Part shown: positions 141 to 37,804 of the stretch, piece after piece
How the letters are laid out: every line of letters starts with the position of its first letter
Numbering within the stretch: the first letter of the stretch is position 1
Source of the DNA: Dehalococcoidia bacterium
Lineage (GTDB): Bacteria > Chloroflexota > Dehalococcoidia > Lucifugimonadales > Lucifugimonadaceae
DNA: 64,000 nucleotides
Assembly (NCBI GenBank): GCA_965242765.1
Contig: CBDESY010000003.1
Location: 4,578 to 68,577, forward strand
Direction: 5' to 3'
Notes under the pieces: generated by a model
The model's database searches: none
Told to the model about the DNA's origin: nothing
The model's input: only the letters and a program-made list of their open reading frames with translations
Program-made: the position numbers and the translations under genes

Positions 141-545
141 TCAGCTGAGCGGTCCGCCGAATATCTTACCTAGACCGCCTGCGATGTTGCCGATCACAGA
201 AGCTATGGCACCGCCCATGACGCGCCAAATCGTCAGGAACATGACGACGAAGCCGACGCTTGCAAGTAGAGTTCGGAAAAATCCCCAACCATCCGAGAAC
301 ACATTCTCGTAGCCAGAGAACGCAAAAATGGCAAACAATCCATAGGCGATTTTGCCCATCGCTCCAAGTAGACCGAACGGATTCTGGAGTATCGTCTGAA
401 GCGATTGCATCGCTTCATTAAAGCTTTCGATCGGTCCGACATCACCCCAAGCAGCATCAGCACCAGTCGCACTAAGAGCCCACAATTCAGCTAGCGAACA
501 TGCGATGTGCAACCCGGCGAATACCAGATATAGCTTTACTGTCAC
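141..545 (-). CDS. small multi-pass membrane protein coupled to giant ORF A
   Basis: 134-aa ORF. Its GTG start overlaps the TGA stop of 542..10630 (GTGA). Several hydrophobic Gly-rich helices (GLFAIFAF, VGFVVMFLTIW, GGAIASVIGNIAGGLG). No family recognised. Confidence 0.55.
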   Translation of the reverse strand: MTVKLYLVFAGLHIACSLAELWALSATGADAAWGDVGPIESFNEAMQSLQTILQNPFGLLGAMGKIAYGLFAIFAFSGYENVFSDGWGFFRTLLASVGFVVMFLTIWRVMGGAIASVIGNIAGGLGKIFGGPLS

Positions 546-3500
546 CTAGTGCCTCTTCGTTTCCCGTAGCCGGCCTGTTCCATAGTAACGCCCTTGGGCA
601 AGAAGCCAGTCAACATGTCGCCACCACCGCCACGACGACCGCCACCGCCGCCACGACGTTTAGGCTTATCCAAACGCGGCACTGGCATCTTGTTCATCTC
701 TTTCAAGCGCGCTTCGAGTTGGCGTTCGGCCTTCTCTACAGCTTCGGCTTCATGCTTACCTCTGATTTGTGTTTCTGCCTTCAGTGCGGCATACTCCCTA
801 ACCTTGCGGTCGTATTCGGCTTCAAGTTCAGCAACACTTCTTTCATCATCGGATTGATCATCAACCTCTACATCCAATTCCATCGCAAAGAGTCCTGCTT
901 GCGGGCCGGAACCCTTCAACGTATCGATGGCATCGTCAACTTCTACAAGCGCGTCACGCAATTCCTTCTTACGCGTTTCCCGCGCTTCAGGCAGACCTCG
1001 CAACCACTCAATCTCTTGCTCGCGGCGTTTCATGTTACGAACGATAAGTTTTTCTTCCCATTCATCGAGGTTGTAGTCGTTAAAGCGGTTTTCGTCGTAT
1101 TCGTTCAGGCCTTCAAGATTGCCAATCAGAACATCTATGTCCCCTTCTTCTTCTAGGGATAGACGCACATCGGCAATGCGTTGTTGCACGGATAAACTTT
1201 GATCGATCAACTCATTATGCCGATCCTCAGCTCTTCGCACGGAATCGTCGCCGATTTGATTCCCCGCCTTGAACCTGTGATCCATGCTATCTTGATGGCG
1301 CGCAATGCGACGCATCAATTCGTCTTCTTGACGATACAAGTCAATTAGTTGTCTGAAAGGCTTGCTGTTCCTAAAAGGCTCGCTGTCACGCGGCGGCTTA
1401 GGTTGAAGCGATTCAAATTGCTCTTGAGGTTTGGCAACTGGAGCGGACGGCTTGGGCTTAGATACTGCTTTAGCTTCGAGAGCCCACGTCTTATCGGATT
1501 GCCGAATCGCTTCTTCAAGTTGCGCCAACGACTGAGGTGTCATTGGAACATCTTGCATCCATGCTTCGCGTGACTCTCTGTAAGGTCGGTTATGCCTACG
1601 ACGTATTTCTTCGGCTAGTGCAGCCAACCTATCCAAAGCGTCGGGATCCGCCATCGTCATACCTCGCAGATTTGCCAGATTTGCGCGGCGACGCGCCCAT
1701 CCCCTATATTCCTCGATGTCTGGTAATTCATCATGCTCTTCAGCATAACGGGGACGATATACGACTTCAGAGAGTTCCGGTGCTGTAGACAGGGACAACC
1801 ACGGCTTGGCTTCCAAGTGCTTATCAAAATCAGTGCGTCGATTATAAGCAACTGCGGACTTTGCTAGCTTCTCGATGTATCTTTCAGACGGAACCGCCAG
1901 ACCGAGTTCAGCAGTTTTCTTAGCGGCATCGGACATGACATCTATAAAATAACGCGTCGAATCGTCCACATCTACAGTTTGTGAGTCGTCTGTGCGCTTT
2001 AACGGCGGCGGCTTCAACTCTGGTTCAGGTTCTTCAACTACCACTTTGGGCGGCGGCGGCTTCAACTCTGGTTCAGGCTTTTCAACTACCACTTTGGGCG
2101 GCGGCGGCTTCAGCTCTGGTTCAGGTTCTTCGACTACCACTTTGGGCGGCGGTGCTGGAACTGGTGTTGGCGGCGGTGCTTGCGGCGGTGTTGCGAAATC
2201 AGGGTCGATTTTATCGCCCTCGTAAGGCGGAACTTCGTGGCTACCTCCGGCAAGTTGTCCCAATGCCGACTCTTTGTTCACAAAGTCACCTGACGACAAC
2301 CCTGTAAGACGTTTGTCTTCAAGTGCGTCTTTTAAGAAAGACTCTTTAGTCCTTCCAGTTTTAGTTAGATCACGTTCAGCGGCGACCAATGCGTCTTCGG
2401 GAGAGTTAACCTCTGTGAACTGGTTCATGTCCCACATCGGTATCGCATCTTGGCTAACTGCGTTCCCGCTTGCATGTTGCACGTATTTCCCCAGCAGTTG
2501 TGCGATGGTCACTGGGGAACGATTGATTGCGTGCAATTTTCGAAACAGCGCGCGCTGTCGATCTGTGAGTGCGGACACTGTTAACGGTCCGAAACCTCTA
2601 GATATGAAGAATTGGTCGATTTCGTAAGGGAACTTTGCTTTCCTGTCACGGAACTTACGAGATTCAGGGTATGTTTCAAGCACCCGCATCAAGTCATCGG
2701 CGATGTCATACTCGGGTTCCAACTCTCCCTTTGAAATTGCATTGCGTAACTTCACCAAATCAAGCAACCCGCGCTCTACTCCCCTTTTTATCTGTCCGAT
2801 GTCGCTTGATGTGTCCTGATTGAACCATGGCTTCAACACTCGGTCGGCGGATGGGGAATTGCCCAATGCGTAAGTAAGCGCGGCTTTCTTTATCCTTGTC
2901 CGACCAGCATCGGAAATACTACCCGTCGAATCGAAAAAGCCACTAGTGTTGCCACTAGTCATCAGACCGACTAACTCTTGCAACGTTTCCTGATTGTCAG
3001 AACGTTTCAAAATGTCGTCAAAGGTTTTATCCCCTTTATCTTCGGACGACACTTCATTGAGCGATGCTAGTTGTTCAATGATTTCAGGCGTGAACATCGC
3101 GGCATCTTGTTGTGACTGTTCCTGCGTAGTCAGGGTCGCAGTCCGGGGTTGGTTACCTTGTCTAACAATCTCAGGGATGTCTGCCTTATTGAGAACGCGG
3201 CTAACAAGCATCGGATTTTCGAGTTGCATAGCGCGTTCAATGTCTTCTTCAGAGAACCCCATCAACTCGGCTTCTTCGCGCAACGCTTCGCGGTATGCTT
3301 CCATTCGACCGGGTATCGTTTCTGCAAGTTTGAAAGCCATCACGCGGCCGTTGCCGTCAAGCACCATGCCCCTTGAGTCAATGATGGGCGGACCGCCGCC
3401 TAAACCTCGCGAGTCCAACAATGGAAGCGGTTGCAAATCAAGCGCAGTCCCATATACCCAAGCCACAGTATCTTCACGATTGCGCGGTTGCAACGACTCT

Positions 3501-6500
3501 GAATGTGCATATTGAGGGTTTGGATCACCCGAACGCGGCATGTGCGATTGAATCACTTGCGAAGCGTCAATGATGTAGTAGCGCGTGTCGAACGTAGTGC
3601 TGCCTACCCCATAACGTTTACGTTTGGCACCCGATATAGCACCCTCGGTGACACCTTCATCAGACAGTTCAACTGGCTTATCGTCTTCACGCGCCTTCTG
3701 GCGTTCTTGAATCTCAATCTGCTTCTGAACATCACGCTGTTGTTGCTTCGTAAGGTAAGATACATCGATTTCAAGGTCTGGAGGTGCCGATGGCTTGGTA
3801 GCGGTAAGATTCCCTAGGCGATCAACGATATTGTCAAGGGATTTGAAGATGGCATTAACCTGCTTGCGCTGTTTAGCCGTTCGACCCTCCTTGCGAGATT
3901 CGTATCTTTCATTAGACCTCAGCGCGCTCAATTCCGATTTAGACAATCGAATCTGGTTGCCATCGCCGGTTGGCACGACCAACGCGCCGTCGTCATCAAC
4001 ATAAGGACGGCCCTCTGCTTTGGCTTTGGCGTTGAACTCCGACTTATGCGTCCCATCCAGCACTGGTTCGGCTTCAAGAAAGATTTCATCCAACAAATCT
4101 TGCTTCACTGCATCGATTTCAGTCGCCTGTTCCCTAAGCCGAACTACCAATCTCTCCACTTCATCCTGCGTACCCTTGCGCAAATCGCCCCATCGGGCAC
4201 CAAGGCGACTATGAATCCACCGATTATTCTTGTATGAAGGCAGTGTCCACGCTTCTATCGGTAATGTTTTAGCCTCTCTAATCCACTTCGATGTTCCAAC
4301 CAGATCGGTAACAGTGTCTTTGTCGAAACGCATCCATTTCCGTTTTTGCTCGATGCTGTCTAAACGCTCTTGCAGACGTTTCACAAACCGCGCGCCAGAT
4401 TCTTCGTCGATGGTCTGCAGGTCTTTCCTGCGTCTTTCAAGATGTTCTTCCAACGAGTCAAAATCACCCTGTGGTCGTGCCGACTCAAAGCGGTTCTTCA
4501 AAGCCTCTTCAGTCCATGCCCGGTCGCGGACATCTCCCTCGAAACGAATATGTTTGGCGTTGCTTGCTTGCAAGGTTTCCCAAGCGTCAAGGACTTCATT
4601 CATTGAAACAAGAACGTCATTGAACTCCAAATCAGGTGTAGGATCAACGTCGTTAAAGTCCGACGAGTCGATTTGCACTATTGGGACATCGCCGCTCGGT
4701 GAACTCGGAACATCAGTTTGATTAGATGGTTCGGGTTGCGTCGGTCTGGACAACGCGTCTTTGACGGCTTTGCGCGCACGGCGCGCAATTCGCAACTGTT
4801 CGTTGATAGCTTCAGCGTGTGCATCCAACTGCCCTTGCGGATGCATGTATATCTTTTCTTCTATCGCTCTGGCGTTAGCGGGAATTTTCCACGTTTCAGG
4901 ATCGCGAACTCTGCCAAACCTAAATCTGTTGTCTTCAGGTAAGTACTTGTCAATCGCTTCAAAGGCAGTTTTGATGGCAGATCGTCCATCTTCAATGTCA
5001 TTCGCAGTTGGCGCGGGTTGCTCATCTTCGGGCGGCGGCTCCTGTCGCAAGAAGTTAGAAGGGCGCATGACCAATGGCGCGGGTTGCTCATCTTCGGACG
5101 GCGTTGATATCGATTCCTTATCCTTACGTTCGGGCTTGATGCCTCTTTCTTCACGCCAATCTGCAAGTCGTTTCTCAGCAGCCTTCAAATCTTTAGCCGA
5201 CCACTGCAACGGACGCGCATAGATGTTGTTTTCCGATCCCAGCACCTGTGCCACTTCATCTTCGTTGTAACCAAACTCGGCAACTTGCTCAGCTGTCAAG
5301 TTATCTCGGTTCACGCTTTGTGTGCCGTGCTTACGCTTAAAGCGATTGAAGGCTAGGTTCGCCGCTTTCACACGATCAAGATTCTCGGATAAGTCCTTGA
5401 TCTGCCTTTCCATTCGTTCTTCAAAGTCAACATCATCATCGAAGGTCTGTTCCAACTCGTGTTCCAACCCGATGATGTGTCCGAGATACGCGGCATCAAC
5501 TTGAAGTCCACGATTGTCCGCGGCTCGCTGACGCTTAGTTCGTTCCAACTCGGCTTCGAGTTTCTGGCGGTAAGTCTTAGGGACATCGTTGGTTTCGTCA
5601 GTCGGAGTTTGATTATCAGTAGCAGGTTTATCTTTGTGCGATTGTTCACTGATTGCGTCTTCTGCTTTCGGATTATCGCCCTGCGCCCGCGCCAACGCCG
5701 CTTTAAGCACCTCGTGGTAAGTTGGCTCAGACAATTTCGGCTTTTCGAGATACTCTCGCGTCTGCCTTCCAACCGCATTGATCGTTTTTTCTTGCCGTTC
5801 CCTCAACTCGCGTTTGGTATAAGGCACACGATCCGTCCATTGATAACGATTCTCATTAATATCAGCTAAATCGCCTGAGCTGATTTCAAAAGACAGCTTG
5901 CCCGGAATGACCTCAATGCGAGTCTTCATATGGGCAAGCGGGACATCTCGCGAAACGATTTCGGAATCATTCTGCTTGAAAGAATCGCGCACCAGCTGGT
6001 CTACTGCCTCAAGCAAAGGTCGCCTGATACCCGCCGCACTCCGGCGATTTCCTTGTTCTAGAGCCGACCTGTATCTTTCAGACAGGTCGTGTATTTTCGC
6101 AATCTCTTCATCAGTGGCGACGCGCTTCGCCACTTCTCGCTCGAACGCCTTGAGGTCTTTATCCCACTTTCGAGCGGCTGAAGTCCAGATAGGGTCGTAG
6201 CCTATATCGCGCGCCATCTCAGCGCGGTCCTTCTTACTCAGATCAAGTCCCACATCCTCCAACTTGCGTTGTATCAATTCGAGCGAGTGCTTATGTGCGG
6301 CGATAGGGTCTTTGCGATTCAGTTCAACAAAGCCTGCTATTTCATCGGGCGTAAACTGAATCTGGCTTGCTGTCAATGCTGGATTCTTTGAATTGGTCGG
6401 CATATCAACGCTCTCCTTGATGCCGGGGGATAAACTAGCGTCGATGCGTTCTATCATATCCGCCCATTTATCACTTCGTTCTTCATAGAAATCGATGTCG

Positions 6501-9500
6501 CTCTCGCTAGCTCCGCCTTCTTCCATGGTTTCAGATATGTAATCTGAAAGGCTCAGTTCACTCTTTAATTTTTCGCGCAAAGTACTTCGTTCTTCGTCCG
6601 TCAGCTCTTCACCAGCGTCGAAGCGTCGCTCAAGTTCTTCAACCTCCCTGAACTTTTCAACCGCCGCCTTGCTTCGTTGATGTGTCCACTGCTCTTCAGG
6701 GATGTCTTTGATCAACCGATACTCAGCGCCGTAATCGGTTTTGTGGAAATCTCTACCCGACGCGTCAGCAACGGCGACCACAGTGTATTTTCCATCGGCT
6801 TCTTTGATGCGCTGCTTCATAATGGCACCGAAATCTCTGTAGCGATGGTTTTCGATGTAAGGTCTGGATTCTTCGATTAAATCAAGCACCTCGCTCTGTG
6901 GAACATCAACGCTGTACACCCGGCTATCGCGGGTAGACACTGCAAAATCGTGCGCCAAGTCCTCTGAAGGCGATAGCGACAACAACCCAAGCCCAAAGCG
7001 GTCGCCGGTGTGATTCGACATCTTGGTCGTCGGCGCGCCGCTAAAACGTCGCGGAGTTCCGTGATGCAGCCTTATTGTCTTGGGAACAAAAGGCTTGGGC
7101 TTCCAATCTGGGATTTCAATCGGCGTGGGAGGGAATGACTGAATCTCTTCGGCAAACTTTTCGTTAGGGGAATATCCATAGCCGTAGTCCTCGAGAAGAC
7201 GCTCGCTTTCTTGCGACAATACGTTACCGCTATCAAGCTCTTCCTTGATAGCGTCCCTGACTTCTTGCAACTCCTCAGCATCTTCGGCGATACCAGATTT
7301 TATTGCATCGATGTTGGACTCGGTATCCTCTACGAAGCGTTTGTATTCGTCCGCGTCTTCAATTCTGGGCAGTTCGTATTCGGCAACATCAATTTCGTAT
7401 TTAATCTCTTCAAGCGTAGGTTCCGGGGGGTTCTCTTTTGCTTGAACGAGGTAACGATGGATCAACGAATTGTCGATTTCGTCAGGCAGTTTCCGCATCT
7501 TACCCTTGTGGCGTTCAACGAACTCTGAAACGTCGGATATCCCGTACCGGCGCGCCAATGCTTCTAACACGCGGGCATCATCCAGCGTCTTAGAGTCTGC
7601 GGTTCCAAAGTCGCCAATCTCGATGTCTTGCGGACGATAGTAGGACGGCCTTTGGTCATGGTCAGAGATTCGGATAGATGTTTCAAAGTCTTCGTCGTCA
7701 CCACGCCACGAAGAAAGAGTCAGATAGGTTGAATCGGATAGATTGCTCTTATCGATGTCCACAGCGTCAACACCCAACTCCGGCAACACCTCAAGCAGAT
7801 ATTCGACTTGATTCCTAATCTTTCGATCATACGGCATCGAATGTTCAGGGACTGTGATTTTTCTTGCGCGCTTAATCGGTGATATCGGAGTGTCGGCGCG
7901 TGTTGGCAGTTCAAGTGCGGTCGCAGTTGGTGTATCAGGCAGCAGGTTTCGTTGTCCAACATCTTTCAAAATCGGCAATGAAGTTTGTGCTTCCTCATGT
8001 GGTTGAAGTGCGGAGTGCAACGCATAAACGATTGCATTATCTTTGAGCGTTCGCCCAGTCCCATCCGGTCTCGTCTGTCTATCCATATATGGCAGAAAAC
8101 GTCCGTCAAACTCTACGAAATCGTAATAGTGACCAAACCCAGTCGATGCACGATATTTAATATAGTTCGCAAAACGTGACCGGGTTTCACGCTTCCACTC
8201 TTCGTAGTCCTCTAGTTTTTCAGGAACTGGAAGCAACCTGTTCGGGATGCGAAGCACTTTGGCATTGTCGGGGACTTCTGCTTCCGGCACCTCATATTCG
8301 TCGATAACATCAAGTAGCCTACGCTCCCGGATAAACAGTTGAGCGCGCATCAAATTGTCAAGTTCCTTGGGGTCGGCGCGACCTAACAGCACCGCCTTTT
8401 CGAGTTCATGTTTCTCGGTTTCCAATCGATACTGGTGAGTCGCCTTCACCAAATCGGGAATAGGATCGGGTGATTCGTAATACGCCATCATCGCTTGCAA
8501 ATCGAGTGGTGCGCGTTGTTTGAACAAATCTTGATCGTGAGTGCGCTCTTGCAATCTTTTCACTTGTCTTGCGTATCGACTAGATAAATCTTTGATGTCC
8601 TCGAAAAGCTCGGCTTCGGCAATTGAGCGCATTTCATATCCGACCAACTGACGATCATAACCGCCAACAAGAAAATTAAGCACGTCCGACTTGCGCGCGT
8701 TATCAGCGAACCGATTGATTGTGGTTTGCGGACGTTGAACATGCTTAAGGTCCATGCTCTTCCGCTTCTCAGCGAAGATGTCCGCCGCGCGCTGGCGATA
8801 CTCCTCTTGGCTTGGGAACAGACTATCAACAATCGCCAACTTCTCTTCTTCAGACTTGTTGGCAAGGTCGTCCGGTATTTTGCGCGTTGGTCGCTTCAGA
8901 TACTCAAGGCTTTTCGTGTAAGCGTCGGAACGCTCAGGGTCAAAGATGATGTTGGGGTCAATCTCGGAGAGGCTAATTTCGTTGATCTCCGAGCGAGAAT
9001 CTTCCATCATCCTTCGATGGTTAACGGCGGTATTCTTACCCACTTTTTCTATCTGATCGGGCGTAAGTCTGAGGTGATAGAGTTCGGTTGCCCTTCTGAA
9101 ATTGTCAAGCGTTTGTTGGGTAAAGCGTGTATCTGGCGATTCCAAGAAAGAACGCCAGTCATAACCCAATCCAGCCTGCAACCTCTTATCTCGCTGCAAT
9201 TCCCCTCTATTTGCTAGCAACACTGACTTCGCCAGGTCGTCTGCGTCATCGATGTCAATACCACTCGCCTTGCCGATCCTACGGAGTGAATTGGCGATTG
9301 CTCCCTCAGTCATCACCGCATTGCTCAGCTTGGAATAATCCTTGGCAACACGCTTACGTATTTCTGCCTTGGTGCCTTCGTAGCCTTTAAGCTTGGCGTA
9401 TTCGCTGATGATGTCTGATACAGATTTGCGGTACTTCGTCTTCATCGCAAGATTATGTTTCTTGCGCGTTTTGGTGATAACTTGGTATGCTTCGTTCACC

Positions 9501-10630: not shown

Positions 10631-10992
10631 TCAACTACACACTGAGGATCGCCCATCGTCGCTACGGGTGCGAGAACTTCAACCGCGCACTTTGCGGCCG
10701 GTGCGTCGTGACGGATTTCCAGCAAATCGAACCAAGCGGAATCAATCAACGTCTGATAGTAATCGACATCGACTAGTTCATCGATTCTGTCTTGCCTGTC
10801 CCATATCTCATAAGGCGATTCAAGCGGCTTGGGTGCGAAGTCTTTAATCGCTCCGAGAGTCGTCTGAACCACAACAAAAGCGTTATTCAGTTCGTCTGCA
10901 TCGTCCGTTTCTTCAATGGCCTTGCCTAGACTGGCTTCGGCAGCCTTCAGATAAACGTATATGTCCTCGAATAGTCGATCAAGCTTCGTCAT
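10627..10992 (-). CDS. acidic hypothetical protein
   Basis: 121-aa ORF. Its stop overlaps the start of giant A (ATGA). No motif recognised. Confidence 0.55.
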   Translation of the reverse strand: MTKLDRLFEDIYVYLKAAEASLGKAIEETDDADELNNAFVVVQTTLGAIKDFAPKPLESPYEIWDRQDRIDELVDVDYYQTLIDSAWFDLLEIRHDAPAAKCAVEVLAPVATMGDPQCVVE

Positions 10993-11185
10993 CAGATTCC
11001 TTCTTTTTCGTTGCCTGAACCGGCATTACATTCCAAAACACTTCACCATCGTCATCAACGACGATCAGAGGTGCATAAACATTCCCATGCCCAGCATCGA
11101 ATCGGTCACGCGCCAATTCACTCAAACGCGTAAGCAACGCGTCTGTGCCTTCGTGGTTGCTGGTGTCTTCAGGTTCGATGTTCAT
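10979..11185 (-). CDS. small acidic hypothetical protein
   Basis: 68-aa ORF lying in the operon chain, with a short overlap with each neighbour. Confidence 0.45.
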   Translation of the reverse strand: MNIEPEDTSNHEGTDALLTRLSELARDRFDAGHGNVYAPLIVVDDDGEVFWNVMPVQATKKKESDDEA

Positions 11186-11400
11186 ATCACGGGCAGTCCA
11201 TCAGGTTCGTTTCTGTAGGCTGGGTCGTAACCCAGTATCTCGATACACATGTCGTAACAACTCGGACATAGCAGAATCCAGTTTTCACGACCGGGATAGT
11301 TCAACTTGCGACGCTCTTCAGCGTTGGCGGGTATCATCTCGCTAACTTCATTGTTGCATGTAGCGTTCCTGCAGATTTCCACGTTCATTACAACCGACAC
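11182..11400 (-). CDS. small Cys-rich (zinc-ribbon-like) protein
   Basis: 72 aa with 'CRNATC ... CPSC' cysteine pairs. ATGA-type overlap with the downstream ORF. Confidence 0.5.
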   Translation of the reverse strand: MSVVMNVEICRNATCNNEVSEMIPANAEERRKLNYPGRENWILLCPSCYDMCIEILGYDPAYRNEPDGLPVI

Positions 11401-11418
11401 TGTTCGATCTCCTTGCGT

Positions 11419-12375: not shown

Positions 12376-12600
12376 AATGAACCTCGTGGATCGTCAATCG
12401 CACATGCTTAAACAATAGCACGTGACGGAGCAACTTGAAGCTTGCGCCGGCCCGCGCATACCGACGCAAGTTGCATCTTTGCTTTTTCCATCCCTTGCAG
12501 CGCGGTTATTCAGCGTCACACTCCGCAACGCTACAAAATGTTGATGCGCGCCACCAATTCCGAATTTTCGTCAAGTACGCATGAAACAGTCGCGGTTCAC

Positions 12601-14577: not shown

Positions 14578-14587
14578 CGACTTCTCC

Positions 14588-23298: not shown

Positions 23299-23302
23299 CC
23301 AA

Positions 23303-28109: not shown

Positions 28110-28439
28110 TCACCTGCGCGGTCGTCCATGACTGTCGTACCCCGGCCAGTCGGTGCGCGCTTGTTCTCTATTCATCGATAGACGATTGGCGCGCGTGTTG
28201 GTAGACACCCGGCGCGGCTTTTTCCGCGCGGGTCGTTTACGCACCAAACCATCCATAATCTCTCGGACTTGAAACGTCGTTGCGATGATGCAGACGATGG
28301 CGATGGCATAAAGCAGATACTCGAAAAGCCACGCAACCTCGCCATACGCTTCAAAGCGTTCATTGGTGCCTACCCATGAACCAAATACCGCGCAAAGCGC
28401 GGCACTTGCTCCCAAAGCGAATATGCCAAGTATCTGCAT
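28110..28439 (-). CDS. small 2-TM membrane protein with basic tail, coupled to giant ORF B
   Basis: 109 aa. Its start overlaps the stop of 28439..37804 by 1 nt. Two hydrophobic helices are followed by 'RKRPARKKPRR'. Confidence 0.55.
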   Translation of the reverse strand: MQILGIFALGASAALCAVFGSWVGTNERFEAYGEVAWLFEYLLYAIAIVCIIATTFQVREIMDGLVRKRPARKKPRRVSTNTRANRLSMNREQARTDWPGYDSHGRPRR

Positions 28440-31400: not shown

Positions 31401-34400
31401 TTGTTATTTGTGCCGCCGAACCACGAACGAATCGGACCTGTGACGCTTAGGTGTCTACCTTGATCGTTGCGATTCAAAATCGCCCTTGGCACATACTGGA
31501 CTGTTGAACTGTCGGATATGGTTGGTGAAACTGCGTGGGCTTCAAGATTCAGATTCAACGAGTCCCAGAAGTCGCGGTCGGACTTCAAGGTTCCACTGTT
31601 TGCATCTTGAAGGTCGCCCATCTGATTCCGCTCGGAACGATCATATGCATAACCCTCAGGTGTATTTGGATCGTAGTGCGCCTGGGTTGGTGTTTCGCCC
31701 CTCAGGAAGTTAAGCACCAACTGACCGCCCTTTGTTTCTTTCCATGAAGCAGGCAACACCTTGGACATCGCGTTTTCAAACGGGGTTCCAATAGGTCCGG
31801 TGCCACTTCCAACACCATCTAAACCGGTGTTATGCCGAAGCGTCGGTTCACCGAGTATCGAAACCAAATCATCATGAGTCGCATCAAAGCTTTCACGCGC
31901 AATACCGATATCTCGGACGTTGGTTGCGATCATCGCTTCGACCGCGTCGTTCCGCAAGAGATTCCAAACCCTGTTATCTCCTTCACTTGCAGTAGTCGCA
32001 TCGTAATCGCGGCCTGTCAAATCCCTAAACAAGTCCGCAGTCACTTGAGGTATGGCTTCGGGTGATGCCATCTCATATCGGTTCACGTTCGAATCGCCGT
32101 CTAACATCGCTTCTTGTTGCGACGCACTCTGTTTCGCCCATGAAACCGGCAACAGTCCGCCGCTAAACTCCATTCCATATGAAGCCGCGTACGTAGCTGT
32201 GCTGAGTGCATATAGGACAGCGTTGTAAAGACTGGGATTGTAGAAAGGATCGTTTTGGACGTGTGTGCCTTCGCCGAAGTCAAACCCTAGAAACTCGCCG
32301 CCGCCCGTCCATGTTTCAGCGAAGTTCTGCGCCACTTCTTCAAGTGGTTCTTTCAGCAGCTCTGCAGCACCCTTCACAGGTGCCAACGCAGTCGCAATTG
32401 AAGCCGGCACGGCTAAACCGACGTTCATCAGAGCGTTGTTGGGACGGAATGGCATGACGGCATCAGGTATCTTGACGGCAAAGTCCCCGTATCCAAACGT
32501 TGCGCCACCGCGCAGCACTTGCGGATTGCGAATCGAATCAATCAATTGCGTCCCTAGACCTTGCAACATCCCTTCGTTACCGATGTCGGTCACACTCCCA
32601 TGCGTATTGTCCCATCGAGTGCCAGACCATTCATTACTCCAAATCCCTTCAGGACGCGGCACTATCATGCCGGTTTCGACATCAACAAGGTTTGGCATGT
32701 CATCACGTCCGAAGTACTGGCGTCCTTCGTGGTGATACACGCCACCTGGTTCTTCACGAATGCCGTAAGCATTTGTCACAACGTCGTAGAAGTTTGGAAC
32801 ATCGCCACTTGGCACGGGAATGGCGTTGTTTGATTTTGATGGTGCGACATCCGTCACACGATGTGTTTCACCATCGATGGACACGCCAACCAATCGGCGA
32901 TTAGATTCGATGTCGGGTATCAAATTAGCGGCGTTGCCTGCAATCACACCCAATCCGAACGGAGCTAAACTACCAGCGACACCTAGAGCAGATTTCGCCC
33001 AATTCGTGCCGGACACTGGATCGCCAAACACAGGGTTGGCTCCTACTGGTGTGCGAGAGCCGTCCGCGCCTATCTCATACCAAACGTCCCTTTCTTCATC
33101 CCAAGCGAGTTTACGACCATCTTCAAGCGTTACTCCCGCCGCCATGTTGTAAGTGTTGTCCAGTGCGTTGCGCGTAGTGTTGATTTGCAGTTCCCGCAAC
33201 ATGCCCGGTTGCATTTCATACTCGGCTTCGACTCTTGCGAGCTCTTTTTTGCCAGCGTCATTGACATCCATCAAGGTCATCAACTGCACAACTGATTGAG
33301 GTGTGTTCGTCGGTTCTTCGCCACGCGCTAGAGCCGCTCGCAGTTTGCGCGCTTCTTGTTCCGGGTCGGCTATCCCCTCATCCTCTTGCATCGTCTCGAC
33401 TAATCGATCTATTTCAGATTGGGTTTGATCAATTTTGTTTGTTGCATTGATTTTTTCTATATAGAGACCTTGATCGACTTGGCGCGGATTGTTCGGCGCG
33501 CTTTCACGCGTTGCAAACCTAACCAGTTCTTCCTCGAACCAATCAGGATTGCTTTCGTCTATCTCCCGTCCCTCTAAAAGAGCGATACCGCGCAGTTTTT
33601 GTTCACGCGCGGCCTGACGTTCGTCTTCATCGATGTATTCGTGAACCAACCGCTGATCGTCATTGAGTGAAGCGACACGCGTGTTTGCGTCATATTCGCC
33701 ATCGTCACGCCTTTGCTCGTATTCGTCACGTGACATGTACTCGATGTTGTCGGGATCCTTGAGATTGTAGACCGCAACCTGCCCGTCGTTTTCTTTTTCG
33801 AGCAACGGCGCAAAGTCCCCAAAGTTCTCTTTGTTTCGGTCGCTAATGCGCGCGTTGATTTGAGAGTAGACAGCGTCCAAGTCGTCCCACGACTTTACGT
33901 TGCTGATGTCCACGCCGTAATCAAGCGCATTTCTTCGCACCTTGTTTACCGCCACACCTAACGCCGCATCATCCAAGTCGCCCCAGTCCTGTATCTCTCC
34001 GATATCGACGTTTGAAGCGAAGGGATCGTTCACCAGTTCACGTCTTGCGATGTCCAACATCGCTGCGTCTACGTTTTTGAGATCGAAAGAGCCGACGCGG
34101 TTATCTTCATACTGGCCGGTAAGCGCGTTCCAAGTCGTCGTATCGCTGATGCCGAGTTCGTCATACTTTCCGTCTATGAAGTCCGCGATGTGTTGCTTTA
34201 CTTCAACAAGCGTTCCCGTATCGTCTACATCTAACGACCTTGCAGTCCGTCCCCACTGCGCTCGCTCATTTTCGTTGGCAATTCGTTCCGCATTTTCCTG
34301 CACTTCAGTCAACACGGACTGCACTTCTTCTAACGTGTTTAATTCAGGCCGTCTATAATCAACAACTTCACCCGTCAGGTCGTCAATCTGTTCTGCAAGT

Positions 34401-37400
34401 CCCGATTCGTCTAGTTTCTTTTGCGTGAACCCCCTAACCGCCTCCTGTGCGTCGCCGACGTTATCGAAATCTCCCAATCCCAGCTGATCTGCTGCACTTA
34501 TCCAGCTTTGGTCGACGTTGTGCTGATTGACATCTTGCAAGTATTGGTTGACATCTTCCCAACTTTCCAACTGGCGATCATCGAAACCAACACGTCTACC
34601 ATAGTTTAATGCCTTAGCTATGTTTACATCTAGATAAACCTTTTGTGCATCATAGATGTTGTTTATTTCTGGCGTATGGTCTAACGGCGTTACGTATCGT
34701 TCAAGCTCGGGGTCTACCCCGTGTTCTCTAAATTGATTTCCTAAGTTGCCGGCTATGCGTTCCATGACTTCGGTGGGTTCGCCTAGATGGTTCTCGTGCA
34801 GGTGAACTGCAAGTTGGCGCGCTTGAAAGTCTTCGATGCCCTCTTGGGACATCAGGTCTACAACATAGGCATAGCCTTCATCATCGCTGTTCGATCCGAA
34901 CTGCTTCGAGAGTTCATACCCCCTATGTTTGATGCGTTCTTCCAATTCTTCGTTCGTAAGTTCACGAGTGTTGGACATCTCGCCTATCGGGGTAAACTCC
35001 CCATCGATTATCGTATGCGGCGACACATCCACATCGAAAGCATTCGCAATCGTAAGCAGTTGATGACGTTTCAACATCGCATTGCCTTCATCGACGCCTT
35101 CTTCGGTCGTAAGGTCGGGGATGTCTTCAGGTTTAACGCCTATGCTTAACAGCTGCCCTTCAAACGCTTCACGATTCGCTTGTTCATGGTCGGCGATAGA
35201 TTCTTGAACTCGTGATCGGTAGTAGGGATTGGCAGCCAACTCATCCAGGGTGTAAGGCTTGCCAGTCGCCGGGTTGATAGGCATGTCAAGGTCTTTGTGC
35301 TTGTCAATGACATCGACCAAGTTCATTGCATTGAATGTGTCGGCAGCCAGTTTGATGTTTTCAGGTGTCTGCCCCATCTCCTCGAATGGCGAGAAGTCCC
35401 ATCCCTTCAGTTCATATTCGTCCTTGATGTTGCGCCAAGTCTCTCCACCAGACGCGCCACCAGCAGCGTTGTATTCATCTACGAATCTATTCATCTCTGC
35501 CGTCGCAGCCGGTCCACCTTTGGCTATCACATCCCAGTCTGGTGGCTCGACTCCCGCGTCTGCCGCGTCGATATCTACTCGAACTCTGTCTGCAAGCAAG
35601 GTTTCAGACTGCACTCTGTTCCATTCTTTCGTCGCATCAGTGCCACCTTTGAATATGATGTTCATGTCCAGCGGCTTGACACCGGCTTCTTCAGCCTGCG
35701 AGTTGATCTTTGCAACCTGTTCCGCAGTCACTCCCATGTTTTCAAATATCTGTTTACCATACCCACCAACTTGCCCCGTCGTCTTAAAAAGCTCAACTTC
35801 ATTGTCATGTTCCACCTCTCTAGCCTGAGGTAAATCATTCACATATCGATTCCATTCATCAATCCCTTCCTGATTCGGACGACTAACCTTCACCCAATCA
35901 ATCCCCATGCCCAGTTGATCGCTCTCTTTTATGGCATTGATCATCTCTTCTTGCGTCAGTCCTAAGTGATTAACCTCAATCGGATTGCCTTGATCATCCA
36001 AAACGATATTGCCGTCTTCGTCCCGTTTGTGTCGCACAACTTGGTTGTAGAGCGGGTCGTAGAGGTCAGGATTGAGAACCCTATCATTTTGTTCGTGTTC
36101 TATTCTGGCTTGCTCGATTTCTTTATTTTTATTATCAAACCTACTTACGAAACTGTTCCATTCATTTTGCGCTTCTTCTCCCCCCTTGGCAAGAACCTTT
36201 ACATCCGGCGGCTCGATGCCGATACGCTTTGCATGTCGGACACCATCCGCTATTTGTTGGGCACTCACACCCGCTTTAGTCACCACGGGTGTCAAACCCA
36301 AATCCACTTCCTGTTGATCTGGAACAACCTGCAACTCTCCATACGAACTTTCCCTAACTCCCCTTTCGCCAGCAACTACAGCGTTGATCATTCGATTGAA
36401 CTCATCACTTGCCGTTGCACCGCCGTTGCGAATTATGTCATCGTTAACCGCTATACCCAAAGATTTAGCACGCCTTAACCATCCATCAAAGTTGTTTTCT
36501 TTAAGCGTTTCATCCCACCTGCGACTGATTTCCTTGGCAACGCTTTGATGCCATTGCCTAGAGTAATCAGGGTCGTATTTTGGAGAATTAGGGTCGGCGA
36601 TGCTTCTGTCGAACTCAAAACCTTCGCCCAAATCTTGAGCTATATTTTCGTTGTTCGTGAATACCTTATCGTTTGCTTCATCTAGCTTCTCTTTCAAATA
36701 TCCCCTATCTGTCAAAGCTTGATTTGCATCGAAATCAATCCCCAACTGTTCCATCTGGGTAGCAGTTGTCGAAACGTAACTTTCATATTCGGCTTCCGCC
36801 TCAGCGTCAGCAACGGCCTGTTGCTCTTCTCTCTGTTTACGGAATTGAGCATCGAGTCCTCGAAGATACTTAGCACCAGAATCAAAATCGTTTCCTTTGA
36901 TGGATTTTCGCAAACCCATTCGATCTGAAACCCGACCGCTCATCAGAAATCGAGCAAGCTCTTCAGGATCGCCTTGCCCATATTCATTGGTGAGTCCAAC
37001 ACTCTTCGCTATAGACCTTGCCTGGTTGATCGACACGCCGAACCCATTGCTCAGCAAGTTGCGCCAATCCAGATTCTCGCCTTGCTCAGGTCTGAACTCG
37101 TCTAGCCAATAATCTTCGTCGTCATCAGATTTGGTGTCTGTAACAACCAAACTAGAAGAATCAGGGGTGGTTTTGACATCACCGGTCTTGGATTTGGGAG
37201 CATCGTCGACTTCAACATCTACTTCATCGTCTTCAATTTGGTTCATCAAGGACTGCAAGGCTTGATAAAGCTCAGCCTCAGAAAACCCAGAATTGTAGAT
37301 AGCTTCTTGCCGTTGCTCTCCGATGGTGTCGAACAAGAACGCAAAGTCACTGAGGGAATCATACCCCTTGATCGCCACAACGGAACCCGACTTGCGGGTT

Positions 37401-37804
37401 ATTCCACGTTTACTATCCCTTTCACGTTCACGTCCCTCAGCTGTTGGAGTTCTCTTGGTTGGAGTTCTCTTGGTTGGAGTTCTCTTGGTTGGAGTTCTCT
37501 TGAATTTCGGCTTCTTCTTTGGAACGTTGTGTTCCAGAAGTTTCTCCTCAGTTTCTATGTCAGAACTCGGACTATCCGTCGGCTTCTTAGTTGGAACTTT
37601 GGTCTTCTTAATGTCTTGTATACGATTTCGACGATTGATCTCTTGTTCTTCGCGAAAGAGTTCGTCATCGGCATAGTAATCCTTACCCCGATTCGAACTC
37701 TCTTTCTTGACCTGTTTCTTTGGGACCTCTCGTATACGATTTCGACGATTGATCTCTTGTTCTTCGCGAAAGAGTTCGTCATCGGCGTAGTAATCACGGG
37801 CCAT
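28439..37804 (-). CDS. giant repeat-rich protein B (3121 aa), function unknown
   Basis: Uninterrupted 9.4-kb ORF with GGAGA 7 nt upstream of the ATG. Contains a duplicated 38-aa N-terminal module, (KRTPT)4, at least 5 copies of a 'G[IV]xPxD..KGG..A..E[WF]NR' module, and (QDEL/QEEL)n and (QNQV)n arrays. No catalytic motif recognised. Confidence 0.9.
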   Translation of the reverse strand: MARDYYADDELFREEQEINRRNRIREVPKKQVKKESSNRGKDYYADDELFREEQEINRRNRIQDIKKTKVPTKKPTDSPSSDIETEEKLLEHNVPKKKPKFKRTPTKRTPTKRTPTKRTPTAEGRERERDSKRGITRKSGSVVAIKGYDSLSDFAFLFDTIGEQRQEAIYNSGFSEAELYQALQSLMNQIEDDEVDVEVDDAPKSKTGDVKTTPDSSSLVVTDTKSDDDEDYWLDEFRPEQGENLDWRNLLSNGFGVSINQARSIAKSVGLTNEYGQGDPEELARFLMSGRVSDRMGLRKSIKGNDFDSGAKYLRGLDAQFRKQREEQQAVADAEAEAEYESYVSTTATQMEQLGIDFDANQALTDRGYLKEKLDEANDKVFTNNENIAQDLGEGFEFDRSIADPNSPKYDPDYSRQWHQSVAKEISRRWDETLKENNFDGWLRRAKSLGIAVNDDIIRNGGATASDEFNRMINAVVAGERGVRESSYGELQVVPDQQEVDLGLTPVVTKAGVSAQQIADGVRHAKRIGIEPPDVKVLAKGGEEAQNEWNSFVSRFDNKNKEIEQARIEHEQNDRVLNPDLYDPLYNQVVRHKRDEDGNIVLDDQGNPIEVNHLGLTQEEMINAIKESDQLGMGIDWVKVSRPNQEGIDEWNRYVNDLPQAREVEHDNEVELFKTTGQVGGYGKQIFENMGVTAEQVAKINSQAEEAGVKPLDMNIIFKGGTDATKEWNRVQSETLLADRVRVDIDAADAGVEPPDWDVIAKGGPAATAEMNRFVDEYNAAGGASGGETWRNIKDEYELKGWDFSPFEEMGQTPENIKLAADTFNAMNLVDVIDKHKDLDMPINPATGKPYTLDELAANPYYRSRVQESIADHEQANREAFEGQLLSIGVKPEDIPDLTTEEGVDEGNAMLKRHQLLTIANAFDVDVSPHTIIDGEFTPIGEMSNTRELTNEELEERIKHRGYELSKQFGSNSDDEGYAYVVDLMSQEGIEDFQARQLAVHLHENHLGEPTEVMERIAGNLGNQFREHGVDPELERYVTPLDHTPEINNIYDAQKVYLDVNIAKALNYGRRVGFDDRQLESWEDVNQYLQDVNQHNVDQSWISAADQLGLGDFDNVGDAQEAVRGFTQKKLDESGLAEQIDDLTGEVVDYRRPELNTLEEVQSVLTEVQENAERIANENERAQWGRTARSLDVDDTGTLVEVKQHIADFIDGKYDELGISDTTTWNALTGQYEDNRVGSFDLKNVDAAMLDIARRELVNDPFASNVDIGEIQDWGDLDDAALGVAVNKVRRNALDYGVDISNVKSWDDLDAVYSQINARISDRNKENFGDFAPLLEKENDGQVAVYNLKDPDNIEYMSRDEYEQRRDDGEYDANTRVASLNDDQRLVHEYIDEDERQAAREQKLRGIALLEGREIDESNPDWFEEELVRFATRESAPNNPRQVDQGLYIEKINATNKIDQTQSEIDRLVETMQEDEGIADPEQEARKLRAALARGEEPTNTPQSVVQLMTLMDVNDAGKKELARVEAEYEMQPGMLRELQINTTRNALDNTYNMAAGVTLEDGRKLAWDEERDVWYEIGADGSRTPVGANPVFGDPVSGTNWAKSALGVAGSLAPFGLGVIAGNAANLIPDIESNRRLVGVSIDGETHRVTDVAPSKSNNAIPVPSGDVPNFYDVVTNAYGIREEPGGVYHHEGRQYFGRDDMPNLVDVETGMIVPRPEGIWSNEWSGTRWDNTHGSVTDIGNEGMLQGLGTQLIDSIRNPQVLRGGATFGYGDFAVKIPDAVMPFRPNNALMNVGLAVPASIATALAPVKGAAELLKEPLEEVAQNFAETWTGGGEFLGFDFGEGTHVQNDPFYNPSLYNAVLYALSTATYAASYGMEFSGGLLPVSWAKQSASQQEAMLDGDSNVNRYEMASPEAIPQVTADLFRDLTGRDYDATTASEGDNRVWNLLRNDAVEAMIATNVRDIGIARESFDATHDDLVSILGEPTLRHNTGLDGVGSGTGPIGTPFENAMSKVLPASWKETKGGQLVLNFLRGETPTQAHYDPNTPEGYAYDRSERNQMGDLQDANSGTLKSDRDFWDSLNLNLEAHAVSPTISDSSTVQYVPRAILNRNDQGRHLSVTGPIRSWFGGTNNKQASDKMFDFLDANEKKIEQAQENIRNLQRLDSGERYAFIDDVMMDENPALRYSTPTRGQLFEAPEGDIVTRTSVTPDYQIPFEFNVFGDSINDVVVPERGPLATQLPSTTFDVPPIYITKGSDTQTSRPQVWDVDRRWFRNAFGRDPDPNSNYDRLLLEQAYKSGVVKKPGQPQSVDDVLTFTEREADLTGENNSHIPRAVVEEGQVTPQEQPTMFEEFRHGQSALVPDGFSRPAPAVPFEQVKQQGLSPFLDNLSNVHADSSLGRVYRENIVRPERPELLSQTLGNRPTNEGTDPDVVIMDKRRGFVPELANPDAETIKARIEGAPTPREQEIEEVFRDDGFGAEARYKEGRNKTDQLEEFNPAYRTPVQPESVKDWANLLETEYDMLQEQGRRDSRMSKRDRAKLFNLYDEVKTREDAAIAEAEAEQIRLREENKARDDADWERELAKDGIVKLMPVGDKVQYAKLKHEGERGFLDPKDPGLIGAASRAAVGIPAAVIVLGSSLGYTPSEIHDAFMDYTPSIQAESRSSNTPDFARELNESADVQTTRQQTEANEDTEQNVTDDADLGRYVPSDIKTDQLADVEQSARMQSINEAQAAEMEKLSEILDDTQTDTDLQTRIIEDMSGYTTREELDETDADELEDQVTQQETEQYEDTGTQLQDELQEELQDELQDELQDELQEELQDELQDELQEELQDELQEELQDELQDELQEELQDELQDELQEELHQEIQQQEQVQQEIQNQVQNQVQNQVQNQVQNQVQNQVQNQVQNQVQVQNEVTFDYGSELNETIEEELDTEITDDLDEPVTIDDTVDDPVTIPVVQPVETIDQVQFDPIDIPPFNPLEPYDWKVLEALTERKKRPRPLPPWDAENEGDYTMDEVDAQGGRSVELARVRDPESGDYYIVNFTTGEAVKDKVESDRSVMPKVNMPNPNMRDVQVLRTTRRKRPSKRRVSVHDRLVAQAMPRGVSLATAGYDTRGRKSR
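29063..29420 (-). repeat. two adjacent 12-bp in-frame tandem arrays ((QNQV)n and (QDEL/QEEL)n)
   Basis: ttctgaacctgg-type units at ~29075-29170 and ttcgtcctgaag/ctcttcttgaag-type units at ~29200-29417, read directly from the sequence. Confidence 0.9.
37446..37505 (-). repeat. 4 x 15-bp in-frame tandem repeat (KRTPT)
   Basis: ggagttctcttggtt repeated from 37446. The last unit is partial. Confidence 0.9.
37618..37795 (-). repeat. 114-bp-period duplication at the 5' end of giant B
   Basis: A 64-nt core (gtatacgatttcgacgattgatctcttgttcttcgcgaaagagttcgtcatcggc[a/g]tagtaatc) occurs at 37618-37681 and 37732-37795. It encodes 'DYYADDELFREEQEINRRNRI' twice. Confidence 0.9.

Follow-up and report, generated by a model that had tools for sequence, protein, structure and literature searches.

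A plasmid-like 68-kb element with a candidate capsid-less, membrane-based particle-forming module

Introduction

[quoted passage not shown] Hallmark genes of tailed phages are missing from them; directly after a pI-like ATPase come five conserved transmembrane proteins, two of which are structurally like VP1 of SSV1, and there are anchored adhesion-type proteins, HNH endonucleases in the accessory regions, and 14 conserved HOGs that include a tyrosine recombinase, an SSR resolvase and an archaeal primase-helicase (bioRxiv 10.64898/2026.09.15.751708). IME1 dominate metaviromes, filaments and vesicles abound in the viral fractions, and the elements are proposed there to be dsDNA viruses that bud, are likely filamentous and occur in Chloroflexota only (bioRxiv 10.64898/2026.09.15.751708). 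Here we describe a 64,000-nt stretch (the window) of the 68,657-nt contig CBDESY010000003.1, which we read, with about even confidence for and against, as most of a ~68-kb plasmid-like ColE2-type replicon carrying a capsid-less, membrane-based particle-forming module.

Capsid-less dsDNA viruses that bud or are extruded from the cell were previously thought to be in essence a speciality of archaea and Mollicutes, until the 2026 IME1 preprint extended them to Dehalococcoides. Among plasmids, pR1SE of Halorubrum lacusprofundi (~50 kb) is a plasmidion whose own membrane proteins build vesicles that convey the plasmid into other cells (Erdmann et al. 2017, as reviewed in PMC6524685). The window element, compared here by description only, likewise blurs the line between plasmid and virus and differs in that the host of pR1SE is archaeal. 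We know of no pI-like ATPase reported for pR1SE.

Comparison with IME1 and with related contigs

The likeness to IME1 comprises a probable Dehalococcoidia host, the lack of tailed-phage hallmarks, a pI-like ATPase accompanied by small transmembrane or signal-peptide proteins, anchored adhesion-type proteins and HNH endonucleases, as well as the occurrence of both circular episomes and chromosomal copies. A circular 28.5-kb relative of the element lies just above the IME1 size range, and its ATPase is directly followed by transmembrane proteins of 132, 65 and 88 aa. In contrast, the window element itself is 2.5-3 times larger (68.7 kb), has a ColE2-type Rep in place of the tyrosine recombinase, resolvase and archaeal primase-helicase of IME1, and encodes 1600-aa candidate spikes built of Fn3 domains, two giant proteins each exceeding 3000 aa, five methyltransferases and eleven paralogous hairpin membrane proteins. 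We read it as a much larger, plasmid-replicating, giant-protein-carrying variant of IME1-like elements, whose mode of working would be that of IME1 and, in a looser sense, also that of fuselloviruses, pleolipoviruses, plasmaviruses and plasmidions. New with respect to IME1 would be the size of the element, its plasmid replicon, spikes of giant length, giant and putatively co-delivered proteins, and a host lineage of marine symbionts.

The related contigs used throughout are the following. An 86-kb contig (L001/L101/L012) and a 51-kb contig (L003) share one arrangement, in which an Fn3 giant is followed at a distance by the ATPase, a 70-aa protein, a giant with a ParB domain, a 139-aa protein and a hairpin protein. 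L004 has an ATPase 43% identical to that of the window, with nine hairpin genes directly upstream of it, and carries a Resolvase gene (Pfam). The 28.5-kb contig ctg147865c (L102 and L095) is called circular because of an 11-nt overlap between its ends and an ORF (open reading frame) that reads in frame through the junction; no ParB giant, methyltransferase, capsid or type IV secretion system (T4SS) family is on record for it. Its ATPase gene (L095 10001-10950) is split over three frames by two frameshifts, either a long-read indel error or gene decay. Finally, L013 (TARA_SAMEA6028956 scaffold_124) holds at 7676-15317 a partial copy beside ordinary metabolic genes, comprising an Eco57I-type methyltransferase, a hairpin protein, a homologue of the window's 109-aa protein, an IS1595 transposase and a homologue of its 3121-aa giant, whose region the transposase interrupts; this copy may be an integrated or decaying element. 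The features of the window are collected in Table 1.

Table 1. Features of the window, in order of position, followed by the sites of the C-terminal motif in related contigs.
Feature	Position	Strand	Basis or remark
134-aa multi-transmembrane membrane protein	141-545	-	last in transcription order
3362-aa giant with ddrB-like ParB domain	542-10630	-	Pfam PF18763, E = 6e-17
C-terminal motif, 3362-aa giant	542-620	-	
72-aa Cys-rich protein	11182-11400	-	directly downstream of ATPase
Zot/pI-like P-loop ATPase, 318 aa	11419-12375	-	Pfam, PHROG, hhalign, fold
Cys-rich/methyltransferase cargo block	12601-18101	-	
N6_N4 DNA methyltransferase	12601-14577	-	Pfam N6_N4_Mtase
N6_N4 DNA methyltransferase	15686-16927	-	Pfam N6_N4_Mtase
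102-aa ORF with zero cysteines	17572-17880	-	amid Cys-rich ORFs
Small separate transcription unit	18108-18410	-	promoter and terminator
Fn3 giant, 1628 aa, paralogue of the 1608-aa one	18442-23328	-	Pfam fn3, E = 7e-33
Fn3 giant, 1608 aa	23303-28129	-	Pfam fn3, E = 9e-36
109-aa protein, two transmembrane segments, basic tail	28110-28439	-	transmembrane prediction; both neighbours overlapped
3121-aa acidic giant	28439-37804	-	no Pfam match; first in transcription order
C-terminal motif, 3121-aa giant	28439-28510	-	
DnaA_N-domain protein	38972-39775	+	Pfam DnaA_N, E = 1e-6
444-aa protein of no known family	39726-41060	-	
ColE2-type primase Rep with C-terminal helix-turn-helix	41275-42498	+	PF03090, E = 1e-14
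MT-A70 methyltransferase	44526-45077	+	
Type II hammerhead ribozyme	45385-45454	+	Rfam RF02276
phrog_67 methyltransferase	46420-47607	+	
Eleven paralogous two-helix hairpin membrane proteins	49018-56923	-	
Lipoprotein trypsin-like serine protease	53002-54336	-	Pfam Trypsin_2, E = 2e-21; amid hairpin genes
411-aa N-terminally anchored protein with PT-repeat linker, and 61-aa protein with two transmembrane segments	57083-58506	-	head of membrane-protein block
phrog_67 methyltransferase	58756-59889	-	
HNH endonuclease	61273-61653	+	phrog_589, E = 2e-10
Phage-family protein, function not assigned by phrog_4652	61599-62252	+	phrog_4652, E = 4e-31
79-aa protein, two transmembrane segments	63324-63563	-	conserved in family
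C-terminal motif, L003	15040-15111		
C-terminal motif, L004	13743-13810 and 18501-18570		

A plasmid-type replicon without capsid, tail or conjugation genes

Nearly all window ORFs of at least 100 aa and many smaller ones were scanned against Pfam, PHROGs and partly NCBIfam, and the absence of hallmark genes is a negative result from these profile libraries. No capsid, portal, terminase or tail family was found in the window ORFs with Pfam, PHROGs or NCBIfam, and no VirB4, VirD4/coupling protein or relaxase family with Pfam or NCBIfam. An earlier sequence-only reading of the window had already noted that tailed-phage and VirB4/VirD4/relaxase genes were lacking, and the profile scans agree, with no capsid, terminase or T4SS core gene coming to light. 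The same families are absent from the precomputed Pfam matches on ~110 kb of relatives. Of the weaker matches that might be read otherwise, a 'minor tail protein' PHROG match (E = 9e-8) is confined to the Fn3 repeats of the 1628-aa giant; those to the terminase large subunit (PHROG, E = 0.041, Walker A only) and small subunit (PHROG, E = 0.005, HNH-type) are noise-level, and the 'T4SS' Pfam match of an 85-aa ORF (E = 0.004) falls below the cut-off and is likewise noise.

An element of this make-up might also be a fragment or satellite of a conventional virus whose capsid and packaging genes lie elsewhere or in a helper, the membrane proteins then serving in superinfection exclusion or lysis. 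About 4.6 kb of the contig lies outside the window and about half of the 86-kb relative outside inspection, IME1s were themselves formerly suspected to be satellites, and the HNH endonuclease and the phrog_4652 protein, the only clearly phage-family proteins of the window besides methyltransferases, are of kinds often found near terminases. However, the structural genes of a tailed phage would not fit into 4.6 kb, and for the complete circular 28.5-kb relative no capsid or packaging genes are recorded. Neither end of the window truncates an ORF, there are no tRNA genes in it, megablast of 24-kb window pieces against phage and plasmid collections returned no match, and the ATPase has no tblastn match in the same collections. 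We hold this explanation to be very unlikely.

The replication gene is of plasmid type. Its PF03090 match scores 55 bits against a cut-off of 26, and tblastn aligns it at ~25% identity over 71% of the protein with annotated ColE2-type plasmid replication initiators. With such a ColE2-like Rep, a plasmid that carries a surface or a transfer module remains a live reading, and both versions are weighed below beside the genes that bear on them.

A soluble ATPase related to Zot and M13 pI

The sequence-only reading had recognised a Zot/pI-like, assembly-type ATPase, and profile and fold comparisons bear this out. In Pfam the protein matches AAA (6.7e-6) and Zot (PF05707; 8.6e-5, 22.5 bits with a cut-off of 20.3), the AAA family scoring about as well as Zot, and it matches the 'Zot-like' PHROG 197 with E = 5e-5. 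When the profile of its family was aligned by hhalign, M13 pI residues 3-137 were matched at 95% (E = 3e-8), followed by a moderate similarity to His2 ORF33 at 77%, then HRPV-1 VP8 at 25% and plasmavirus L2 ORF3 at 1%. An AF2 model built from a 14-sequence alignment (pLDDT 76) was compared with known folds by Foldseek; its best PDB match is 2r2a, the N-terminal domain of the Neisseria Zot (E = 6e-7, TM-score 0.61), its best viral matches are the Zot proteins of inoviruses (E = 1e-8, TM-score 0.65), and it also matches AMDV2_16 of an uncultured virus and L2 ORF3. Kinship with L2 ORF3 at the level of sequence was rejected on the hhalign value, though the fold matches. A soluble domain specific to the family makes up the C-terminal half, and the protein is a soluble pI-like ATPase and not a pI orthologue, because it is without a transmembrane segment. 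It is a candidate motor for assembly, DNA loading or extrusion.

The element is comparable to Inoviridae/Tubulavirales in the P-loop domain of the ATPase, in structural candidates that would be inserted in the membrane before assembly, and in the basic cytoplasmic tails of some of these, which recall pVIII. It differs from them in that the ATPase has neither a transmembrane segment nor a periplasmic domain, in the lack of a pIV secretin, a rolling-circle Rep and a single-stranded DNA-binding protein (the last two sought in the Pfam, PHROG and NCBIfam scans of the window), in a genome ~10 times larger and presumably double-stranded, and in coat candidates that are two-helix hairpins and not single helices like pVIII.

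Close relatives of the ATPase number six in 5.8 billion proteins, and none was found in GTDB representative genomes. A profile search of 1.84 billion representatives yielded ~12 full-length relatives and ~450 that match over the P-loop only; among 100 distant relatives, 61 match AAA and 34 match Pfam Zot. Distant relatives occur in small low-GC elements of 13-19 kb, in which the ATPase adjoins proteins with a signal and a ~75-aa C-terminal anchor, built on the plan of the Fn3 giants, together with mini-proteins of two transmembrane segments. Two such elements, L096 (JGI Ga0115863_1005549; 19,036 nt, GC 26%) and L006 (Ga0315294_10006045; 13,291 nt, GC 33%), encode mini Zot-like ATPases of 170-186 aa with adjacent anchored proteins of 585-870 aa, and L096 has a terminal protein-primed PolB, like His2; both look like undescribed pleolipovirus-like or His2-like viruses.

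Two small partners accompany the ATPase. The 72-aa Cys-rich protein has orthologues 48-53% identical right after the ATPase in the 86-kb and 51-kb relatives (L001 and L003). The 134-aa membrane protein, the most conserved small gene of the family, is 82% identical in the 51-kb relative; in the 28.5-kb relative its identity is 53% and its place is right behind the ATPase.

A family of two-helix hairpin membrane proteins

The sequence-only reading had counted many small membrane proteins among the genes of the minus-strand block at 141-37804. Such proteins are indeed present in the window, but mostly at 49018-58506, outside that block, and the likely structural genes lie there as well. The eleven hairpin proteins share a plan in which a conserved first hydrophobic helix leads into a variable loop or an ectodomain with two Cys, after which 'Y-x-G' introduces a conserved second helix containing 'L-x-P-L'. 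Four are short and end in basic tails of 50-80 aa (isoelectric point 10.6-11.9), and seven have ectodomains of 40-130 aa with two conserved cysteines. The family has 15 members in 5.8 billion proteins, all on a few related contigs, and its genes adjoin the ATPase in L004, in the 86-kb relative (L101) and in the 28.5-kb relative (L095/L102); the proteins are candidate particle or membrane structural proteins.

VP1 and VP3 of the fusellovirus SSV1 offer a weak parallel, with two hydrophobic helices and a variable loop that align in register with the hairpin family and with common motifs, namely P-x-I-V-x-x-[IV]-[DN]-x-L after the first helix and 'Y-x-G...L-x-P-L' at the second. SSV1 buds from hosts without peptidoglycan, as the window element would; it differs in its archaeal host, its 15-kb genome and the lack of a pI-like ATPase. 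Two other readings of the hairpins were rejected. Type IV pilin or Flp proteins are not a match, the N-termini having no class III signal motif and the ATPase not being of the GspE/PilB type, and neither are VirB2 pilins, the ectodomains sitting in the loop between the helices and no T4SS being present.

The stretch at 49957-52500 shows recent tandem duplications of hairpin genes. The pair 49957-50451 and 50708-51178 has 89% identity, while 51235-51780 and 51886-52500 differ in their ectodomains but not in the 25 nt upstream; gene 52580-52951 resembles a deletion derivative. The pattern suggests rapid diversification of the ectodomains. The lipoprotein protease encoded amid these genes has a long Pro/Thr-rich repetitive N-terminal region (e.g. 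TPTPQPTATP) and may serve in the maturation of the membrane proteins. The 411-aa and 61-aa proteins at the head of the block gave only low-complexity matches and no family in the profile scans. Beyond the block, the 79-aa protein is 55% identical to the 65-aa protein with two transmembrane segments of the 28.5-kb relative and 41% identical to an L004 protein of this kind.

Fn3 spikes and giant proteins

Each Fn3 giant combines several Fn3 domains with a signal at the N-terminus and, at the C-terminus, a hydrophobic anchor of ~75 aa, which is near-identical between the two and is kept in the 86-kb (L001), 51-kb (L003) and 28.5-kb (L102) relatives. The 1608-aa protein has a signal peptide, at least five Fn3 domains and an anchor ending in FRRAG; the 1628-aa protein is 49% identical to its orthologue in the 51-kb relative and probably starts at an internal ATG (MRTRWLV...). 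Judged by these sequence features they are candidate spikes or adhesins, and the very large, membrane-anchored, adhesin-like spikes of the sequence-only reading are recognisable in them, with the addition that in the relatives they are syntenic with the ATPase. Proteins with a signal and a C-terminal anchor serve as spikes in Pleolipoviridae (HRPV-1, His2) and Plasmaviridae (Acholeplasma phage L2), whose capsid-less membrane vesicle with small internal membrane proteins and a conserved NTPase is analogous to the particle proposed here. Their hosts, too, are without peptidoglycan, and the fold match of L2 ORF3 to the window ATPase reaches E = 7e-6. These viruses differ in their 7-16-kb genomes and the lack of giant proteins, and pleolipovirus hosts are haloarchaeal whereas the host of the window element is bacterial.

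The two giants without Fn3 domains are of separate character. The 3121-aa protein is acidic (isoelectric point 4.4) and contains internal repeats as well as one or two segments of weak hydrophobicity, and its C-terminal motif ends ...AMPRGVSLATAGYDTRGRKSR; profile and PDB sequence searches gave no Pfam, PHROG or PDB match and no recognisable domain. Homologues exist in L013 and in the circular 28.5-kb relative, which keeps the order giant, small transmembrane protein and Fn3 giant, and homologues of the 109-aa protein adjoin the giant in L013 and in the same relative (L102); the 3121-aa giant belongs to the core genes of the family. The 3362-aa protein, in contrast, has a ddrB-like ParB domain at residues 2345-2478 (also matched by phrog_5143, E = 2e-27), an N-terminal HExxH motif spotted by eye and no second recognised domain, and its C-terminal motif ends ...FLPKGVTMEQAGYGKRRGTR; orthologues are found in the 86-kb (L001/L101) and 51-kb relatives, and it is missing from the minimal 28.5-kb one. 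PDB sequence searches of the two giants returned nothing useful. Polyvalent proteins and the Dar-Ddr antirestriction proteins of P1 are said, in work of Iyer et al. from 2017, to be delivered together with DNA, and the 3362-aa giant resembles them in its ddrB-like ParB domain and zincin-like HExxH. It may be classed as a polyvalent-type protein with one recognised domain in 3362 aa, a difference from that group, as is the lack of any recognisable domain in the 3121-aa giant. Of the polyvalent giants named in the sequence-only reading, only the ParB giant accordingly shows a recognisable domain of that type.

The two proteins nevertheless share a C-terminal motif, P[KR]GV[TS][ML]xxAGYxx[KR] (Phi-P-x-G-V-...-Y-...-basic), which is kept in the orthologue of the 51-kb relative and is weaker in two proteins of L004. 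In its general form, a hydrophobic residue is followed by P-[KR]-G-V-[TS]-x(5-6)-G/x-Y and basic residues, a pattern that three related elements show in large soluble proteins. It may be a packaging or export signal.

These proteins are also where a contact-dependent, T4SS-independent conjugation would find its argument. The Fn3 giants and the hairpins with ectodomains would then be mating adhesins, and the ATPase would pump DNA and giants through a junction of small membrane proteins between wall-less cells. The adhesin-like Fn3 giants are membrane-anchored, the shared basic C-terminal motif looks like a secretion signal, the Rep is of plasmid type, relatives are missing from IMG/VR, and ParB-type polyvalent giants (PF18763) are typical of conjugative elements as well as of phages, as the same work of Iyer et al. 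2017 reportedly states. Nonetheless, the profile scans of the window contain no relaxase, oriT-type nickase, VirB4/HerA-type or FtsK/TraB-type translocase, every characterised Zot/pI-type ATPase acts in virion assembly, IME1 with the same architecture of ATPase and membrane proteins were recovered from virus fractions, and distant relatives of the ATPase reside in small virus-like elements, one of them with a protein-primed PolB. Conjugation of this kind seems to us rather unlikely.

Organization of the minus-strand block

All substantial ORFs at 141-37804 lie uninterrupted on the minus strand in the ORF listing of the window, and the gene calls agree with the content given by the sequence-only reading, i.e. 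two giants, two Fn3 giants, Cys-rich ORFs, methyltransferases and the ATPase, the latter being followed by three small ORFs and the 3362-aa giant. The junctions are mostly translationally coupled, as had been stated, since 13 of 18 overlap (six by the 4-nt ATGA type and two by 1 nt), and Shine-Dalgarno motifs precede many starts in the window. The terminator that had been reported corresponds to an intrinsic one, a 10-bp GC-rich hairpin with a U-run at ~18150-18112 (-), just upstream of the first Cys-rich ORF. It lies ~240 nt downstream of a near-consensus sigma-70 promoter, TTGACA-16-TAAAAT at 18410->18383 (-), which is placed just past the stop of the 1628-aa Fn3 giant (18442); between them is a ~240-nt leader or possibly a 79-aa ORF (18108-18347). 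Intergenic gaps of 170-340 nt occur at three positions of the block, those of 170 and 225 nt downstream of the 18108-18410 unit. The block is therefore several transcription units and not a single operon, and the term 'super-operon' given to it earlier has to be dropped because of the separate promoter and terminator unit and the gaps. The 18108-18410 unit could itself be a small RNA or an attenuator for the downstream Cys-rich, methyltransferase and ATPase genes, the fold z-score being only -2.0.

Most of the 37 kb is cargo, that is giants, methyltransferases and Cys-rich ORFs, and not the candidate structural module. The block at 12601-18101, which differs from relative to relative, contains two methyltransferases (Pfam N6_N4_Mtase, E = 4e-42 and 4e-44) and six Cys-rich small ORFs of the CxxC type (7-10% Cys). 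Counting those on the plus strand and at 58756-59889, the window encodes five orphan methyltransferases.

Conserved core and likely host

The relatives divide these genes into a core and a variable part. In ctg147865c one group consists of the giant, the small transmembrane protein and the Fn3 giant in the order of the window, and in the other the ATPase is followed by a 132-aa homologue of the 134-aa protein, the 65-aa protein with two transmembrane segments, an 88-aa minimal hairpin and four larger hairpins. L004 and the 86-kb relative (L101) likewise have ATPase, 134-aa membrane protein and hairpin genes side by side. Because the 28.5-kb circle keeps only core genes, the family core can be described as two groups, acidic giant with small transmembrane protein and Fn3 spike on the one hand and pI-like ATPase with 134-aa protein and hairpins on the other, the ParB giant, methyltransferases, Cys-rich ORFs and Rep being variable cargo. 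If the contig of the window is circular, the minus-strand block continues past the window edge to 63324-63563 and the 49-58.5-kb block, as in the synteny of the relatives.

The host is probably a peptidoglycan-less bacterium of the Dehalococcoidia/SAR202. An ABC permease neighbouring the partial copy in L013 is 100% identical to that of the complete Dehalococcoidia chromosome OZ220682.1, a metagenome-assembled genome (MAG), in a comparison that covered 2.9 kb. The same permease is 85-98% identical in many MAGs titled Dehalococcoidia, SAR202 cluster or Chloroflexi, several of which we take from their isolate names to be sponge or coral MAGs. A haloarchaeal or halophilic host was rejected, the median isoelectric point being 6.5 and Shine-Dalgarno motifs and lipoboxes being present. 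SAR202 genomes have no peptidoglycan synthesis genes (PMC6306507), and the likely host therefore resembles those of plasmaviruses and archaeal budding viruses, in which there is only a membrane to cross (PMC6356626). A literature search found no SAR202 plasmids.

Such a host also invites the explanation that the element is a resident plasmid or island, unable to transmit itself, whose products remodel the surface of the symbiont toward the sponge or coral, the ATPase serving in partition, secretion or other housekeeping. The likely host lineage is indeed one of sponge or coral symbionts, Fn3-rich proteins, hypervariable ectodomains and recent tandem duplications suit surface variation, and the partial copy of L013 stands beside chromosomal genes. 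Left unexplained by it, however, are the strict linkage of ATPase and hairpins across 28-86-kb elements, the basic DNA-binding-like tails, the five orphan methyltransferases and the ParB/DdrB giant, which suit DNA entering new hosts, and the circular 28.5-kb relative, which is almost solely this module. We find it distinctly unlikely.

A model of particle formation

The findings that are established directly, namely the gene content, its conservation and synteny, the topologies and the ATPase fold, are consistent with a model in which the element probably spreads in membrane-derived particles, whose formation we infer. First, the eleven hairpin proteins and the two Fn3 megaspikes would insert into the cytoplasmic membrane, and the basic cytoplasmic tails of the short hairpins would bind the dsDNA replicon beneath it. 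Next, the Zot/pI-like ATPase with its 72-aa and 134-aa partners would drive DNA loading, extrusion or budding, giving an enveloped pleomorphic or filamentous particle without lysis; non-lytic release would be feasible because the host lineage has no peptidoglycan wall. The two non-Fn3 giants, which share the C-terminal motif, would be recruited into the particle and delivered with the DNA. Finally, in the recipient cell the ParB/DdrB-like giant, together with pre-methylation by the five orphan methyltransferases, would blunt restriction, and Rep would then re-establish the plasmid.

Several observations weigh against this model. A 68-kb dsDNA with 3000-aa proteins is far above any known capsid-less bacterial virus in size, the Rep is plasmid-type, and Pfam finds no integrase, recombinase or IME1-type primase-helicase in the window, from which about 4.6 kb of the contig is left out. 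The 318 aa of the ATPase contain no hydrophobic or transmembrane segment, the C-terminal domain of a true pI is also absent, and its resemblance to pleolipovirus VP8 and L2 ORF3 is insignificant by sequence. The alignment of the hairpin family with SSV1 VP1/VP3 is marginal (hhalign 27%, score 26.9 against a composition-matched shuffled maximum of 20.5), the family has no PHROG match, and relatives of neither the ATPase nor the hairpin family are found in IMG/VR. The host assignment of the window element comes from one scaffold of the relative L013. Lastly, particles, packaging and transfer by this element are predictions from its genes, and the likeness to IME1 is one to their described architecture and not a sequence comparison.

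The sequence-only reading had favoured a non-tailed, membrane-associated vehicle over a tailed phage or conjugative plasmid. The absence of hallmark genes, the Zot-like ATPase, the synteny of hairpins and spikes and the IME1 precedent speak for such a vehicle, whereas the 37 kb from which it was proposed is mostly cargo in several transcription units, the Rep is that of a plasmid and one giant, not two, carries a known polyvalent-protein domain. The vehicle is the best available reading, with part of its basis outside the 141-37804 block.

A more specific version appears possible to us, if doubtful: a 68-kb bacterial plasmid-virus with ColE2 replication, capsid-less membrane particles of VP1-like hairpins and 1600-aa Fn3 megaspikes in which it leaves wall-less SAR202/Dehalococcoidia cells, an inovirus-type pI ATPase, and proteins of more than 3000 aa co-packaged by a C-terminal signal. 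No other capsid-less bacterial virus would come near it in size, and it would be a living link among inovirus assembly, archaeal spindle and pleomorphic viruses, and plasmids. If the model is true, the ATPase and hairpin module also occurs in marine symbiotic Dehalococcoidia/SAR202, couples to a plasmid replicon, scales to ~70-86 kb and can carry Fn3 spikes of giant size as well as giant proteins that probably travel with the DNA. The system bears on plasmid-virus conversion in either direction, on the targeting of very large proteins into particles, and on the movement of mobile DNA among abundant uncultured sponge and coral symbionts rich in restriction systems. The family is nearly invisible to current virus and plasmid detectors, being absent from IMG/VR, PLSDB and INPHARED and amounting to at most 15 proteins per family in 5.8 billion.

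Other features of the window

The remaining features lie mainly in the plus-strand centre, which also encodes an endonuclease. For the 444-aa ORF beside the DnaA_N-domain protein, a PDB sequence search gave nothing useful and tblastn against plasmids one marginal hit. The hammerhead ribozyme (39.7 bits with a gathering score of 37) occupies the 94-nt gap between ORFs 45074-45385 and 45480-45950 in the plus-strand block of methyltransferases and small ORFs, and may process a polycistronic transcript. Small Cys-rich ORFs of the CxxC type (5-10% Cys) are unusually many throughout, at 11182-18101 (-), 43628-48529, 58508-58744 and 60208-61653, and the annotated genome of the pleolipovirus His2 is likewise rich in CxxC mini-ORFs.

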